Source: Chitinophagales bacterium (lineage in GTDB: Bacteria > Bacteroidota > Bacteroidia > Chitinophagales > JADIYW01). Taken from it: DNA of 64,000 bases. A program made the translations under genes and the position numbers. The stretch covers positions 530,231 through 594,230 of the forward strand of contig JAXLTX010000002.1 in assembly GCA_046329775.1 (NCBI GenBank), written 5' to 3'. The notes under the pieces were generated by a model that saw nothing but the letters and a program-made list of their open reading frames with translations, did not search any database and had not been told where the DNA came from. This document shows, piece after piece, positions 2,979 to 9,100 of the stretch (positions are counted from its first letter, which is position 1; each line of letters begins with the position of its first letter).

Positions 2979-4553
2979 ATGACTGTATTAGAATCTACTG
3001 CCATTAAAATCAGCAATCCGATCAACGGTTCTATTCTCTATGAAATAGATGAAATAACAAACGAACAGGCTAAAGCACATTTCGATAAAGCCAGAGACGT
3101 ACAAGTGAAAATACAGGCAATGAGCGTGGAACAACGCGTTGCCGAAGTTTATAAGATCAGGGATTATGTCATTGCCAACAGCGATTTCATCCTCGACTGC
3201 ATCATCGCAGAAACCGGAAAGGCAAGGACAGACGCCTTTGCTGCGGAAGTGTTTGAAGTGACGGATGTGATAGACGTCTACAATAAACTGGCACCGAAAC
3301 AACTGAAAGACCAGAAGATGAACTGGCCCATTTTTCTCATGGAAAAAACATCCAGGCAATTCAGGGAACCGCTGGGAACCGTTCTAGTCATCACTCCGTG
3401 GAACTTCCCGTTCTATCAGGTGATTGTACCGAGCCTGATGTCATTTTTAGCCGGAAATGCCACGATTGTAAAACCATCGGAAGTGACGCCCTTAAAACCA
3501 TTGTGGGATCATTTCTTCGCCCACAGCGGCTTTATGAAAGACGCTATACAAGTGGTGATTGGCGGCAAAGAGACCGGGGCCAATTTACTGGCGCAAAGAC
3601 CGGACAAAGTACATTTTACGGGCAGCGTGCATACCGGAAGAAAGCTCATGGAAGCCTGCTCCAAACAACTGATTCCCATCGATCTGGAATTGGGCGGCAA
3701 AGACCCCAGCATCGTGTTTGACGACGTGGATATTGACAGAACTGCCAACGGCATCATGTGGGGCGCCTTCACCAATGCCGGACAAAACTGTACCGGTATC
3801 GAGCGCCTGTATGTGCAGGAAGGCATTTACGACCAGCTGGTACCTTACCTCGTGGAGCGCACACAGCGCCTGCGCACATCGCATCCCGGCAGAGATACCA
3901 AATCGCCGGCGGACTGCGACGTAGGCGCCATTACCGCGCCGTTTCAGGTGAAAATCATCGAAGAGCATATTGAAGATGCGATTGCTAAAGGCGCCAAATT
4001 ATTGTGTGGCGGCATCCAGGAAAAAGGCTCGCACCATATCCCGCCGACCATTTTTGAAAACTGCACGCACGAGATGAAGATTGCTTCCGAAGAGACCTTC
4101 GGGCCTACACTGGCCATCATGAAATTCAAGACGGAAGAAGAAGCCATTCGCTTAGCCAATGATTCGCCGTATGGTTTGAGTGCTTCCGTATGGACCAAGG
4201 ATGCAGCGCGTGGCGTACGCGTGGCTCGTGCCATCAAGGCTGGCAATGTTTGTATCAACAACCACATGCTGAACGAGGCCAATCCTTACCTGCCCTTTGG
4301 TGGCGTGAAGGACAGCGGTATCGGGCGTTTTAAGGGCGAGGACGGCCTGCTGGCCTTCTGCAACCTGAAATCCGTGCTGATTGACAAGCAAGGCAAGCTG
4401 ATAGAGCCGCAATGGTATCCTTACACCGAATCCAAGTACAAGTTATTGTATGCCGTGATGCTGAGCTGGTTTGGCAAGAGCCGCAACTACTTCAAGTTTG
4501 TGAAGAACGTGTTGCCGCTTGATTCCATAGGAAACAAAGAGAAATTCAAATAA
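2979..4553 (+). CDS. Aldehyde dehydrogenase family protein
   Basis: ALDH motifs are present: FTGSVHTGRKLM, ELGGKDP, and catalytic Cys context NAGQNCTGIERLYV. Confidence 0.9.
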   Translation: MTVLESTAIKISNPINGSILYEIDEITNEQAKAHFDKARDVQVKIQAMSVEQRVAEVYKIRDYVIANSDFILDCIIAETGKARTDAFAAEVFEVTDVIDVYNKLAPKQLKDQKMNWPIFLMEKTSRQFREPLGTVLVITPWNFPFYQVIVPSLMSFLAGNATIVKPSEVTPLKPLWDHFFAHSGFMKDAIQVVIGGKETGANLLAQRPDKVHFTGSVHTGRKLMEACSKQLIPIDLELGGKDPSIVFDDVDIDRTANGIMWGAFTNAGQNCTGIERLYVQEGIYDQLVPYLVERTQRLRTSHPGRDTKSPADCDVGAITAPFQVKIIEEHIEDAIAKGAKLLCGGIQEKGSHHIPPTIFENCTHEMKIASEETFGPTLAIMKFKTEEEAIRLANDSPYGLSASVWTKDAARGVRVARAIKAGNVCINNHMLNEANPYLPFGGVKDSGIGRFKGEDGLLAFCNLKSVLIDKQGKLIEPQWYPYTESKYKLLYAVMLSWFGKSRNYFKFVKNVLPLDSIGNKEKFK

Positions 4554-4554
4554 G

Positions 4555-4584
4555 AAAAATGCCGCTGTCAGAGCGGCATTTTTT
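4555..4584 (+). terminator. Rho-independent terminator
   Basis: ATGCCGCT pairs with AGCGGCAT across a 5-nt loop, with an A-run 5' and T6 3'. Confidence 0.75.
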
Positions 4585-4745
4585 AATGTGTTTTGTGGAT
4601 AAATAACACCAAAACACATACGTATACATAAAAATACTTCTTTATCTTTAGGGAGTTAGAGATATGAAAAGTCATACCTATCTGGCTAATGGATAGTGGA
4701 TAGGTGTGATTTTGTCATACATATAAACAAGTTAGCAGCCATATT

Positions 4746-5228
4746 ATGACGACAAACACCTCGAAAAATAACGGACTAATAGTTGGAACAATCTTTACGG
4801 TTTGTTCATTCCTATTGACATTTACATTTGTTGTGCCGATTATTTCAGTATTACCTGGAGTGTTTTTTGAAACTATTTCAAAAGCCATTGTTTCAAATGA
4901 CCCATACAGTAATGTGGGTAATCTGACAATCCTTTTACTGACTGTTCTTCTTTTATTAGCAATTATCTTGACCATAGTTTATACAAGGAAACGTACACCG
5001 GCAAACGAAACTTTATCTAAAGGAAGATTGACACTAATAATGTTCGCTTTTTATTTTATCGTTCATCCATTAGGTTTTTATATTTATTGGGGACTAAATC
5101 TAAATTTTCGTAGTGACGGACAATTAATATTTGCGGCAGTAGACAGTTTTCCAATTTCAAGTTTTGCTTTTGTGCTATTGGGACTTTTAATTGACTGGAT
5201 AAGAAATACGGCTGCTAACACAGGCTAA
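4746..5228 (+). CDS. Hypothetical multi-pass membrane protein (AT-rich, islet-borne)
   Basis: 160 aa with about 4 hydrophobic helices. GC is lower than in the neighbours. The ORF is flanked by the inverted 10-mers GTTAGCAGCC (4731-4740) and GGCTGCTAAC (5210-5219). Confidence 0.5.
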   Translation: MTTNTSKNNGLIVGTIFTVCSFLLTFTFVVPIISVLPGVFFETISKAIVSNDPYSNVGNLTILLLTVLLLLAIILTIVYTRKRTPANETLSKGRLTLIMFAFYFIVHPLGFYIYWGLNLNFRSDGQLIFAAVDSFPISSFAFVLLGLLIDWIRNTAANTG

Positions 5229-5389
5229 ACGAATATGCGGTGGGACGTGCAAGTTGCAAGCGCATTTTTCATCGGTGTAAACTTTTTGTTGGCGCTTGCC
5301 ATTACCGATAGTAATTATTAATTAAATTCGTGCGGCTAGACATTGAAGTGCTTTCTATACCGCACATCGTTTAGCCTCAAACGTTAGGT
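5210..5389 (+). other. Large imperfect palindrome with attC-like architecture (R''-L''...L'-R')
   Basis: TGCTAAC (5213-5219) pairs with GTTAGGT (5383-5389). GGCTAAACGAATATGCGGT (5223-5241) pairs with ACCGCACATCGTTTAGCC (5359-5376), giving 17 bp with one bulged A and one mismatch. An inner stem joins GCAAGCGC (5256-5263) and GCGCTTGC (5292-5299). The upstream ORF's stop codon sits inside the left arm. Confidence 0.4.
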
Positions 5390-5586
5390 GCAAGCGTAGC
5401 GGACGACACAACAGACATCAAACAAACATTAAAAACACAGACAAAATGCCAACGCTTCGCAAAATTAAAAGAGCTGCAAACCGACACACAAGCCGACCCA
5501 AATTGCAGCACATTTAATTTTGCCCAACCGCACCAATACTTTCAGCATTTGTTGAAAATTCAGAGCTAAAACAGACCTGTTTTTAT

Positions 5587-5594
5587 TATCTTTG
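5587..5594 (+). promoter_or_regulatory. Candidate Bacteroidota -7 box (TAnnTTTG) for the methyltransferase
   Basis: TATCTTTG lies 15 nt upstream of the ATG at 5610. Confidence 0.35.
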
Positions 5595-5609
5595 ACACAC
5601 AAAAAATCA

Positions 5610-6629
5610 ATGACAAATTATATAGACTACATAAACGAAACACTCAAACCGAGAATAACCGAAAAAGAGGTTGTTCTTGACTTGTTTGCGGGTTGTGGTG
5701 GTTTGTCTTTAGGCTTTGAGGCTGCTGGTTACAAGACAATTGGCTACGAAATGGATAAAGCCGCATCTGACACTTATAACAAAAATCTTGTTGGCGACTG
5801 TTTTCCTATAAAACTTGACCTTGACTTTGAATATCCGCAGGCGGACATCGTAATTGGTGGACCACCTTGCCAACCTTTTAGTGTAGGTGGACACCAAAAA
5901 GGAATGGAAGATGCAAGAGACGGATTTCCTGTTTTTATTGATGCAGTTAAGAAGTTGCAACCTAAGGTTTTTATGTTCGAGAATGTTCGGGGACTTTTAT
6001 ACACGAACAAATGGTATTTCGATTTAGTATTGACCGAACTTCGCAAACTCGGTTATATCATTGACTTCAAGTTACTCAACGCAGTAAATTTTGGAGTTCC
6101 CCAAAACAGAGAACGACTTTTTGTTTTCGGACATCGAGCAAAATTTAATTTCCCAAAACCCAATCATCATAAAGTAACAGTAGGTGAAGCTATTGGTGAC
6201 CTAATGTTTTCTACGCCACCCGAGAGCAAGTTTTTTACAGCTTCTATGGACACTTATGTTGCCAAATATGAAAAGGCTTCATCGTGCATAAATCCGAGAG
6301 ACTTGTATGCTGACAGACCTGCAAGAACATTAACTTGTAGAAACCTTGCTGGAGCAACAGGTGATATGCAGCGTGTAAAATTAAAGGACGGAAGAAGAAG
6401 AAGACTTTTGCATAATGAAGCAGCAAGACTTCAAAGCTTTCCAGACTGGTATGAATTTATTGGAAATGAAACACAAAGATTTAATCAAATTGGCAATGCC
6501 GTTCCACCTCTTTTAGCATATCAAATGGCATTAGCTTTAAAGGATTGCTTTCAAATGGATGAACTTTATTCAGCAGAAGAAATTATAGAAAACAACTTAC
6601 AGCCAAATCAAGTTCTGACACTTTTTTAA
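5610..6629 (+). CDS. DNA (cytosine-5)-methyltransferase
   Basis: Canonical m5C MTase motifs are present: DLFAGCGGLSLGF (I), GGPPCQPFS (IV), ENVRGL (VI), QNRERLF (VIII), GNAVPP (X). ATG 5610 is preferred over the TTG at 5592. Confidence 0.9.
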   Translation: MTNYIDYINETLKPRITEKEVVLDLFAGCGGLSLGFEAAGYKTIGYEMDKAASDTYNKNLVGDCFPIKLDLDFEYPQADIVIGGPPCQPFSVGGHQKGMEDARDGFPVFIDAVKKLQPKVFMFENVRGLLYTNKWYFDLVLTELRKLGYIIDFKLLNAVNFGVPQNRERLFVFGHRAKFNFPKPNHHKVTVGEAIGDLMFSTPPESKFFTASMDTYVAKYEKASSCINPRDLYADRPARTLTCRNLAGATGDMQRVKLKDGRRRRLLHNEAARLQSFPDWYEFIGNETQRFNQIGNAVPPLLAYQMALALKDCFQMDELYSAEEIIENNLQPNQVLTLF

Positions 6630-6630
6630 T

Positions 6631-7611
6631 ATGAAGAATTATATTCCCAAAAGCACTAAATCAAAGGCTGTTCAAAAAATCATAAATGAAGCTCTCGACA
6701 TTTTAAACAGTGTCGGCATTCCAATGACCAAAACCGAAAGAGGTTTGGAAAGAATGGCAGTTTGTTTTCTTGCTGTTGCAGGTGTAACGAAAGATTGGAG
6801 TAAAGCGAAAGAAAATGCAAATCTTAAATCTCGTGACATTATCAATCTCGTAAATAAAAATTTTGAAGAAAAAATCTCATCAGGTTCTTATGACGACATT
6901 AGAAGAAAAGATTTAAAACTTCTTGTGCTTGCAGACATTGTTGTAAATAGTGGCGTAAACAAAGGTTCTGCGACAAATGACCCAACAAGAGGTTACGCAT
7001 TACACCCAGACTTTAAACAACTTATTGTATCATACAAAACAACTAACTGGACTAAGAATTTAAAATCATTCAATAAGAACAAACCATCACTTGCAGACAT
7101 ACTTTCAAGAAAAAGAGACCTTGAAAAAATTCCTGTAAAACTTCCAAACGGCAAACCGATTGAACTTTCACTTGGCGAACACAACGTTTTACAAAAAGCA
7201 CTTATTGAAGAATTTCTTCCTCGTTTTGGCAGCGATTGCACTGTTCTTTATATTGGCGACACTTCAAACAAAACTTTGCATATTGAATTAGAGGAACTTA
7301 AAAAACTAAATTTCTTTGAGCTTTCACACGATGAACTTCCTGACATTATCGCATACAGCAAAAAGCACAATTGGCTTTACCTAATTGAAGCAGTTCATAG
7401 TTCAGGACCAATGAGCGAAACAAGAGTTTTAGAGTTAAAGAAAATGCTCAAAGACTGTAAAGCTGAACTAATCTTTGTAACTGGTTTTCTTACTCGACCT
7501 GACTTTAGAAAATGGATGTTAGATGTTGCTTGGGAAACAGAAGTCTGGATTGCCGACAATCCCGACCATTTGGTTCACTTCAACGGACATAAGTTTTTAG
7601 GAGCATATTAA
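6631..7611 (+). CDS. Type II restriction endonuclease, BsuBI/PstI-like (tentative family)
   Basis: It starts 2 nt after the MTase stop. The N-terminal HTH-like region and motifs SYDDIRRKDL and NDPTRGYALHPDF resemble my recollection of the BsuBI/PstI family. Not verified by a search. Confidence 0.6.
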   Translation: MKNYIPKSTKSKAVQKIINEALDILNSVGIPMTKTERGLERMAVCFLAVAGVTKDWSKAKENANLKSRDIINLVNKNFEEKISSGSYDDIRRKDLKLLVLADIVVNSGVNKGSATNDPTRGYALHPDFKQLIVSYKTTNWTKNLKSFNKNKPSLADILSRKRDLEKIPVKLPNGKPIELSLGEHNVLQKALIEEFLPRFGSDCTVLYIGDTSNKTLHIELEELKKLNFFELSHDELPDIIAYSKKHNWLYLIEAVHSSGPMSETRVLELKKMLKDCKAELIFVTGFLTRPDFRKWMLDVAWETEVWIADNPDHLVHFNGHKFLGAY

Positions 7612-7830
7612 CCAACGCTTTTGGTGGCACATTTGTATTTTTTTCAATGCACAGTCCAACGCTAAAAATCCAAAAGAGCCACCAAGCCAACGCACCACAG
7701 ACACTGCAAAAAATGGACAACAGAGCAACGACAGACAAAACGCCAGCACCTAATCGAGTAGACTGCCTCACCGCCCTATGAGGTGAGGTGCGCCTCTCAC
7801 ACCACCGCACGTACGGGTTTCGTTCACTTA

Positions 7831-7855
7831 TCGGTTGGTAGTCCCCACCAACCGA
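7831..7855. repeat. Family-2 hairpin repeat (CGGTTGGT...ACCAACCG)
   Basis: TCGGTTGGT (7831-7839) pairs with ACCAACCGA (7847-7855) across a 7-nt loop. Related copies occur at 25789-25810 and as a half-site at 16029-16046. Confidence 0.7.
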
Positions 7856-7932
7856 AACATAGTATGTTTGGTGAGCCACCAAGCATTAGCAACAAACATT
7901 CAACACATTTTATACTTTTAACGACAAAAACC

Positions 7933-8364
7933 ATGGTACAACTTCACCCACACATCAACTTCAACGGCAATGCGGAAGAAGCCTTTACCTTTTACCAATC
8001 GGTATTCGGCGGGGCATTCTCCAGGCTGGTCCGCTTCAAAGACATGGCCGGTCCCGGCTTTGCAGTGGCGGAACACGAAGCCCATAAAGTGATGCACATC
8101 GAATTGCCGGTAGGCACCAGCAGCCTGATGGGCAATGACGTGCCAGAAAGTATGGGGCGCACCAATGAACACGAACACCGCAGCAAGATTGCGATACGTG
8201 CCGGCAGCAAAGCGGAAGCAGACCATCTCTTCCAGGGCCTTTCGGAAGGCGGACAGGTGGAAGTACCCATGACGGACAGTCCCTGGGGTTCCTATTTCGG
8301 CATGTTCCGCGACAAATACGGTATTGAATGGATGCTGGAGTTTGACCCGAAACAAAAGGGGTAG
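7933..8364 (+). CDS. VOC/glyoxalase-fold protein (PhnB-like)
   Basis: MVQLHPHINFNGNAEEAFTFYQSVFGG... is typical of PhnB/3-demethylubiquinone-like VOC proteins. The upstream 50 codons of the ORF-track call run through repeat hairpins and are rejected. Confidence 0.8.
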   Translation: MVQLHPHINFNGNAEEAFTFYQSVFGGAFSRLVRFKDMAGPGFAVAEHEAHKVMHIELPVGTSSLMGNDVPESMGRTNEHEHRSKIAIRAGSKAEADHLFQGLSEGGQVEVPMTDSPWGSYFGMFRDKYGIEWMLEFDPKQKG

Positions 8365-8512
8365 ATAATGGTTGCACTGCACAGGTATTCTGTCTCATTA
8401 TCCTTACATATTTCCCAAATTCTCAACAGTAGCGCACGAATACTCGTTTCTTTTTGCCATGCGCCAATGGATGTGTACATTTGAACCATCAAAGAATAAA
8501 CTTATCATACTT

Positions 8513-9100
8513 ATGAGAAAAACCATCTTATACCTGGCTGCCAGCTTACTGGCTTTTTCCTGCAAAAAAGGAGACAATAACGATCCAACCATCACTGACC
8601 GCGTGGTCAACAAAACCATCACCCCTATTCCGGTGGGCCCGAATTTCATGATTTCCGACTATCTGGACGTGGACAACGACGGAAAGATAGACATCAATTT
8701 TTTCGGCCAGATTACCGACTCTACGAAGACACTGACGTTAAAGACAGACAACGACAGCACCTTGATATTGTCAGGATATACACCATATGCCAGCTATCCG
8801 GGTGGAATAGTTCCCACAACAAAGGATATGGCTCCCAACACATTCGTGGATGTCTCCTCCTCTTATTGGATAGCGGTTTCTTATACGGCTCTTGTCAGCA
8901 CCAAAAAGACCAAGGAAATCAATACCGGTTTCCACGGTGCCGGCGATAAATACGTCGCTTTGAAACTCCTGAAACCAAGCGGTCAGGATTTCTATGCCTG
9001 GATGCTGATCAATGTCAGTGAAGATTTTAAAACGATTCTGGTAAAAGAGGTCGCAGCCAATACCACACCCAATGAAGGCATTAAAATAGGCGAAAAATAA
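8513..9100 (+). CDS. Hypothetical lipoprotein
   Basis: Lipoprotein signal MRKTILYLAASLLAFSC at the chosen start. No recognisable domain. Confidence 0.55.
   Translation: MRKTILYLAASLLAFSCKKGDNNDPTITDRVVNKTITPIPVGPNFMISDYLDVDNDGKIDINFFGQITDSTKTLTLKTDNDSTLILSGYTPYASYPGGIVPTTKDMAPNTFVDVSSSYWIAVSYTALVSTKKTKEINTGFHGAGDKYVALKLLKPSGQDFYAWMLINVSEDFKTILVKEVAANTTPNEGIKIGEK

Follow-up and report, generated by a model that had tools for sequence, protein, structure and literature searches.

Classical attC sites carry conserved extrahelical bases on their bottom strand, which are read by the integrase IntI, and MacDonald et al. reportedly treated the classical IntI/attI/attC integrons in 2006. Such integrons are reported to be very rare in Bacteroidetes, where the IntegronFinder 2 survey lists only one complete integron (PMC9024848). 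Another system with arrays of acquired genes has been described from Bacteroidales under the name rAID-1, for recombinase-associated acquired interbacterial defence (Ross et al. 2019; 10.1101/471110; Nature 2019), and a later preprint retains this description (PMC12247911). According to the accessible portion of the rAID-1 report (10.1101/471110), an XerD-like tyrosine recombinase stands at the 5' end of a row of short, low-GC genes and points in the same direction as they do, the intergenic repeats are "reminiscent of integrons", and the clusters occur in 226 of 423 genomes. The definition of the clusters there asks for a recombinase that shares at least 44% identity with B. fragilis BF9343_RS08045 and for at least two co-directional genes downstream of it with a GC content of 41% or less. 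The same portion reports motifs, but not a folded structure, a crossover point or a cassette rule. In our literature search, whose coverage left most subscription journals outside, no paper was found with a definition of the folded sites or of the point of crossover. In addition, Leon, Quiroga, Centron and Roy have described group IIC introns that target attC sites (PMC3001079).

Here we analysed a 64-kb stretch of the genome of an uncultured Chitinophagales bacterium (the window), in which a hairpin directly 3' of a small membrane-protein gene had been read, from the sequence alone, as an attC-like site with the layout of an integron attC. Our analysis upholds one half of this reading, namely a folded site that ends a cassette, but not the other half, membership of the IntI/attC family, because neither an integron integrase nor extrahelical bases were found. 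We consider it very probable that a mobile cassette of an integron-like gene-capture system of Bacteroidota, of which rAID-1 is the published face, has its 3' recombination site in the element at 5208-5394. By its sequence relationships, the site is assigned to this rAID-type system and not to the classical IntI/attC integrons. It is a further member of a known, poorly understood gene-capture system. The features of the locus are collected in Table 1.

Table 1 Features of the array and of the flagged site in the window.
Feature	Position	Strand	Remarks
ALDH gene	2979-4553		aldehyde dehydrogenase, followed by its terminator
Array head, attI-like	4667-4731	+	covarying short hairpin, then TGATTTTGTCATACATATAAACAA; ends at G of GTT
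Cassette 1	4732-5383	+	652 bp, TTAGCAGCC... to G of right box; GC 0.357
ORF160 (cassette 1 cargo)	4746-5228	+	160-aa small membrane protein, function unassigned
attC-like site	5208-5394	+	full-length match to covariance model R1
Left box of site	5212-5219		C-TGC-TAAC
Left arm of site	5223-5241		GGCTAAACGAATATGCGGT; spacer ACA between box and arm
Central region of site	5242-5358
Internal stem, 8 bp	5256-5263 with 5292-5299		GCAAGCGC with GCGCTTGC
Right arm of site	5359-5376		ACCGCACATCGTTTAGCC
Spacer of site	5377-5382		TCAAAC
Right box of site	5383-5390		GTTAGGTG
Cassette 2	5384-7753	+	starts TTAGGTGC; ends at left box GCACCTAA (7746-7753)
Conserved end segment A of cassette 2	5384-5540		with segment B flanks the restriction-modification pair
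C-5 cytosine DNA methyltransferase	5610-6629	+	PF00145, E=1.2e-64
BsuBI/PstI-family restriction endonuclease	6631-7611	+	PF06616, E=5.1e-62; PF17728, E=7.3e-29
Conserved end segment B of cassette 2	7604-7739		with segment A flanks the restriction-modification pair
Group II intron 3'-end remnant	7754-7823	-	70 nt; opposite strand to genes; at cassette 2 left box
Glyoxalase-family gene	7933-8364		downstream of endonuclease
Radical-SAM gene	at about 9222

Fold of the site and its family

The boxes, arms, spacers and internal stem that the preliminary description had assigned to the hairpin are all present, and the stop codon of ORF160 (TAA, 5226-5228) indeed falls within the left arm, as had been stated. 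The outer boxes, TGCTAAC (5213-5219) and GTTAGGT (5383-5389), are complementary at five of seven positions. The right one fits the attC consensus GTTRRRY; the left one, already recognized as deviant, fails RYYYAAC at its first two positions. One detail of the stem had to be redrawn. It had been described with one bulged A and one mismatch, whereas the register of the site family has no bulge and two A.C mismatches, so that the window stem reads 9 bp, A.C, 2 bp, A.C and 6 bp, that is, 17 bp with two mismatches. Both A.C mismatches sit on the two positions at which the family is itself mismatched. Folding of the bottom strand as ssDNA had been proposed, together with a check for extrahelical bases. 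When folded singly, each of the two strands retained the long stem (z-scores of -2.5 and -2.3); in the register of the family, the window site has no extrahelical bases. With DNA energy parameters, the top strand of the window site is slightly stabler than the bottom strand (-30.7 versus -29.1 kcal/mol).

A BLAST search of the site against its own genome returned no second copy, and among 33 genomes of the genus one full homologue was found. This copy, in another species of the genus (G006), is 75% identical to the window site and stands behind a different gene, which encodes an LRR protein. It carries a compensatory A-T to G-C change in the stem. The central region is nearly identical in the two sites, and its central 60 nt are better conserved than the stem. 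Sequence search alone thus pointed to an orphan site, and a structure model was therefore needed.

The family alignment comprises 26 sites and includes neither the window site nor the closely related G006 copy. The covariance model R1, built without the window site, has a sole match in the 64 kb (50.2 bits, E=5.5e-9), which spans the full model and carries a central insertion of 66 nt versus 24 nt in the model. The family shares a 17-bp stem with compensatory changes in 15 of the 17 pairs; 93.7% of cells are paired, whereas shuffling leaves 69.9%. For covariation the score is 0.545 versus 0.128; none of 500 shuffles attained it, and sliding the register gave 0.079 at most. One stem position is an A.C mismatch in 22 of the 26 sites and the other in 14 of the 26. 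The arms are equal in length, and no bulged or extrahelical bases occur in the family alignment. The boxes follow the consensus C-NNN-TAAC / GTTA-NNN-G, and the window site retains all of the outer-box invariants; at the one invariant stem pair that it changes, both bases have changed in a compensatory way. Of 27 sites, 20 are stabler when the bottom strand is folded (mean difference 2 kcal/mol), and the window site is not among these 20. The alignment shows an architecture of two outer boxes and an imperfect stem of about 17 bp, with arms more than 100 nt apart, that covaries across the family. As judged from the fold z-scores, the model score and the G006 copy, the flagged hairpin is more than a chance structure.

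Clusters of similar sites, the search for which had been suggested, are present in the genome: R1 matches 19 sites there, in five or six clusters, one of which adjoins a recombinase gene. A further search with the model found 51 sites in related loci and, in an even sample of the phylum, sites in 76 of 151 Bacteroidota genomes (48 of 88 genera). In Pedobacter, Ignavibacteria and Flavobacteriales MAGs, among others, genes homologous to the recombinase have such sites downstream of them. A naive scan of the genome for AAC...GTT plus a stem was discarded, as it gave 94 hits versus 191 in the reversed genome and thus no enrichment; it served only to seed known arrays and not as evidence.

The lengths of the sites, with 12-nt flanks, fall into classes of about 99, 142, 187 and 208 nt, and the window site, flanks included, belongs to the 187-nt class. 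The centre of the 142-nt class resembles about three units of 22 nt (...TGC-N5-TGAAC-N-TTTGTGC...), which suggests that the central units of ~22 nt may be protein-binding repeats in variable number.

Cassettes, array head and intron remnant

The ALDH gene and its terminator are followed by ORF160, the site, the methyltransferase gene and the endonuclease gene, with the glyoxalase-family and radical-SAM genes further downstream. In two species of the genus the locus is empty, the ALDH gene being followed directly by the radical-SAM gene, and at least 4584-7900 is therefore inserted DNA. The GC content of this DNA is 0.30-0.37, compared with 0.45-0.54 in the neighbouring core genes. ORF160 and the genes of the methyltransferase and the endonuclease lie on one strand and have GC values of 0.335-0.381, below the 41% ceiling of rAID-1; the cassettes have values of 0.36-0.37. 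A search of relatives resolved 4667-7902 into a patchwork of elements that recur in other genomes.

Cassette 1 begins with TTAGCAGCC; its own left box contains the exact reverse complement, GGCTGCTAA. In a slightly longer stretch, GTTAGCAGCC (4731-4740) is the reverse complement of GGCTGCTAAC (5210-5219), and a repeat finder extends the match to 15 nt at 93%. The exact complementarity between the 5' end of the cassette and its own R'' box, pointed out before, is thereby confirmed, and arrays elsewhere obey the same rule. We compared 64 neighbouring site pairs from arrays beside recombinase homologues in many Bacteroidota and in Ignavibacteria. Twenty of them match at 8/8 positions and three at 7/8, versus 2 of 64 in a control in which the two boxes of one site were compared; with six free positions, the chance of a box match is about 2e-4 per pair. 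In a row of sites in G006, the bases that follow the G of GTT at the start of each cassette are complementary to the left box of the site that closes the same cassette on its 3' side (TTGGCTGT and ACAGCCAA, TTACAAGC and GCTTGTAA, TTAGTGGC and GCCGCTAA). An array on another contig of the window's own genome (C9) opens with a recombinase gene and the junction G|TTAGCGGT. Four intact sites come next, spaced by about 1 kb, and then intron-invaded sites; the left boxes ACCGCTAA, GCTGGTAA and GCAGCTAA match the starts of their cassettes. These comparisons place the cassette boundary, and with it the crossover, at G|TT of the right box, with each cassette beginning complementary to its own left box.

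One cassette of the C9 array (L036 = G000:C9:324000-342000, 7599-8522; G000 denotes the window's genome) encodes an AraC/GyrI-like protein that falls into the Pfam family "Cass2, integron-associated effector binding protein", and other C9 cassettes encode a MazF toxin and an NYN-CSD protein. In the G006 array (L025, G006:C2, 11063-11995), an IS with a 310-aa transposase splits a cassette, and the rule fails across this IS. ORF160 itself has no Pfam or PHROG match. Its 106 homologues come mostly from Bacteroidota and none of them is named; in three other genomes, no model-detectable sites follow the homologues.

The same complementarity delimits cassette 2, where TTAGGTGC (5384-5391) and the left box GCACCTAA (7746-7753) are reverse complements of each other. 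Its end segments A and B recur as a pair, 3-8 kb apart, in G003, G006, G013 and G017, always directly inward of sites detected by the model. There they enclose different cargo: a helicase fragment, a class A beta-lactamase-family protein, an Hsp70-like protein or a pair of HATPase and radical SAM genes. Segment A without B recurs in other families, and it contains a hairpin with 21-nt arms (5459-5523), possibly a short site that has decayed.

The genome holds about 17 intron copies, and the remnant at the left box of cassette 2 shares 84-88% identity with their 3' ends. Rfam calls those copies group II introns on the minus strand; it did not detect the remnant at 7754-7823 of the window, and the model search for the rest of the cassette 2 site gave no match in the window. 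Every intron copy abuts a left box (...GCCAGC-NNN-TAA|), and in the C9 array the site resumes past the intron. The arrangement indicates that an intron inserted into the left box of the cassette 2 site, the remainder of which has been lost. Most intron copies are ORF-less minis of about 460-560 nt, some of them in tandem, and one copy in the genome bears an RT. This sole RT/maturase-bearing copy lies in the array on contig C8 (G000:C8:158067-159116). The mini-introns of the C9 array (L036 9074-13700) are all opposite to the cassettes, and two of them stand in direct tandem. A hairpin CGGTTGGTAGTCCCCACCAACCG at 7829-7857 of the window has three copies on contig C15 and one at C8:556016, and it occurs also in G006 and G013.

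Upstream, the end of the array head forms the junction with the first cassette (4731|4732), and between the ALDH gene and this cassette there is only a head element and no recombinase gene. Seven further loci of the genus have the same head, conserved exactly to ...AAACAA|GTT, and the sequence diverges beyond. Within the genus, it stands in front of arrays that lack a recombinase, the array in the window among them. The genes that flank it differ between loci, and in six of the seven a model-detected site follows on the same strand. In G006, the head lies 75 nt after the C-terminus of a truncated recombinase; this is the only one of these loci with a recombinase adjacent, and the proposed link between head and recombinase rests on this one truncated gene. 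Downstream of 65 recombinase homologues from other taxa the head motif was absent, so the head is not the general attI of this recombinase family.

A second head in the window's genome (G000:C8:435336-435364; L124 4337-4365) lies beside an lgt-like gene. A head beside the same lgt-like gene, as identified by its N-terminal sequence, is found in G013 (G013:C4, L121). These two heads carry different first cassettes, that of the window's genome being a 1087-aa ORF; the model search downstream of the C8 head (435k) found no site. We infer that the head may be a chromosomal insertion site that is used in trans.

Taken together, the array in the window consists of a head, the ORF160 cassette and a restriction-modification cassette; a recombinase of its own is absent, and its last site was lost to an intron. 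The locus can be annotated as a 652-bp cassette, a site, a head, a restriction-modification cassette and an intron scar, all inserted between two core genes.

Recombinase and competing readings

The genome-wide search for intI that had been suggested returned no integron integrase (TIGR02249) at the model cut-off in this 92% complete genome. The best match, on contig C9, reaches 188 bits in two pieces versus a cut-off of 265 bits, with model positions 180-239 missing. It is a 355-residue tyrosine recombinase that is co-oriented with the C9 array it heads. This protein aligns contiguously to the archaeal XerA (4a8e, E=1e-34), whereas its alignment to the Vibrio integron integrase VchIntIA (2a3v) falls into two pieces, with 63 IntI residues opposite 20; by this alignment, the gap corresponds to the IntI-specific segment. 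All NCBIfam profiles scored below their cut-offs against the recombinase, and its N-terminal region of about 80 residues has no significant Pfam match. Its closest relatives are from Chitinophagales MAGs, and Bacteroidales homologues (Paludibacteraceae) are 53% identical. The homologues run to thousands, the named ones being mostly generic ("site-specific integrase" or "XerD"), and no B. fragilis name occurs among the best 120. Arrays of sites begin right after such an Xer-like recombinase gene in the window's genome and in many Bacteroidota.

From these data a working scheme can be proposed. The site would act as a folded single strand or as a cruciform, and the Xer-like recombinase encoded on C9, or a relative of it, would bind the paired boxes and the arms in trans. 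Strand exchange at G|TT with the head (4731|4732) or with another site would then insert the 652-bp ORF160 cassette or excise it as a circle. The strand might be chosen through the conserved A.C mismatches, which are T.G on the bottom strand, and not through extrahelical bases. The missing extrahelical bases and the missing IntI domain are coherent with each other and suggest a different means of strand choice.

A classical integron attC, recombined by IntI and belonging to a CALIN left behind by a true integron, would have the right box found here, the R''-L''...L'-R' layout, a cassette start complementary to its own left box and an intron placed as published for attC-targeting introns (PMC3001079). 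We nevertheless regard such an origin as very unlikely, given the integrase-model score far short of its cut-off in a nearly complete genome, the recombinase at the head of the same sites, which is contiguous with XerA and lacks most of the 63-residue segment of VchIntIA, the absence of bulged bases in the family and the misfit of the left box. Moreover, classical integrons are reported to be very rare in Bacteroidetes (PMC9024848), yet this site family occurs in about half of the sampled genomes. It is possible, though we doubt it, that the site is a true member of the Bacteroidota system but by now a fossil, the array being stranded without a recombinase and immobile and the hairpin kept by descent. 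The lack of a recombinase in the window, the second site wrecked by the intron remnant and the uniqueness of the site sequence in its own genome are in accordance with such decay, and the near-identity of the central region to the G006 copy indicates a young site rather than one demonstrably under selection. However, the outer-box invariants are all kept, the stem is paired save for the two A.C mismatches, and the changed invariant pair shows compensation on either side. The same genome also has a recombinase and arrays that are intact, and the heads that occupy the same chromosomal position in two species with different first cassettes argue for use in trans.

Two further readings would take the hairpin out of recombination by this system altogether. 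It is highly improbable that the hairpin is a structured element of another kind (for example a small RNA, a REP-like repeat or a terminator) that merely chanced to sit after the ORF. The position directly 3' of the gene, overlapping its stop codon, would suit such an element, as would the better conservation of the central 60 nt than of the stem between the two close copies. However, no terminator pattern was found inside the site, for which reason the terminator reading was rejected, and an Rfam search of the site gave no family match; nor would exact matches between cassette starts and left boxes in many arrays, or arrays next to recombinase genes, be expected of terminators or REPs. The 15-nt, 93% complementary repeat that flanks the ORF (4731-4745 and 5205-5219) could likewise be taken to delimit a small transposon or MITE that has ORF160 as its cargo. 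This we find the hardest to credit: target-site duplications and a transposase are absent, the repeat is unique in the genome, and the same complementarity, with other sequences, recurs cassette by cassette in many arrays, always with the box of a model-detected site. The transposon reading was rejected on account of the missing target duplications and further copies.

With the site read as a recombination site of the Bacteroidota integron-like system, a broader proposal can be made, which we consider about evenly balanced between true and false. Bacteroidota and Ignavibacteriota may possess a second lineage of integrons, phylum-wide in extent, with hairpin sites that have no extrahelical bases, recombinases that have no IntI domain and strand choice by A.C/T.G mismatches. 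Several recombinase-less heads would be served in trans, and attC-type group II introns would have arrived independently; the window would hold one such head with two cassettes. If the system works as inferred, it would be a route of gene capture in Bacteroidota that is major and yet for the most part unannotated. It would carry defence systems, such as the restriction-modification pair here, as well as immunity genes, as in rAID-1, and it would mean that cassette recombination at hairpin sites is possible without the IntI-specific domain.

Comparison with known systems

The introns of this genome resemble the group IIC-attC introns (PMC3001079) in that they lie on the strand opposite to the cassette genes and at the left box, between the gene and the remainder of the site. 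Unlike those introns, the copies in this genome are mostly ORF-less minis and the window holds only a 70-nt remnant; the likeness is one of position.

Compared with classical integrons, the present system likewise has one or a few promoter-poor genes per cassette, ending in an imperfect palindrome with outer AAC/GTT boxes, as well as a crossover at G|TT and a cassette start that complements its own left box. Site sequences that are conserved within a lineage, integrase-less arrays and a cargo of restriction-modification and other defence genes are also common to both. In contrast to classical integrons, the recombinase lacks the IntI-specific domain, has about 80 additional N-terminal residues and is co-oriented with the cassettes. 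The sites differ from classical attC sites as well, with mismatches in place of extrahelical bases and with asymmetric spacers (1-3 nt versus 5-6 nt).

The closest likeness is to rAID-1, as far as the accessible portion of its description goes (10.1101/471110). The C9 array of the same genome has its recombinase at the 5' end, co-oriented with low-GC cassettes, and the repeated intergenic sequence has its counterpart in the R1 matches at the window site, in the arrays of the genome and in those across the phylum. The prevalence is also alike, with 226 of 423 genomes described for rAID-1 and 76 of 151 Bacteroidota genomes matched here. By the same portion of the text, the array in the window differs from rAID-1 in having no adjacent recombinase and in that a conserved head, separate from the cassettes, forms its beginning. 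It carries a membrane protein and a restriction-modification system, not orphan immunity genes, and its host is an uncultured member of the Chitinophagales and not of the Bacteroidales.
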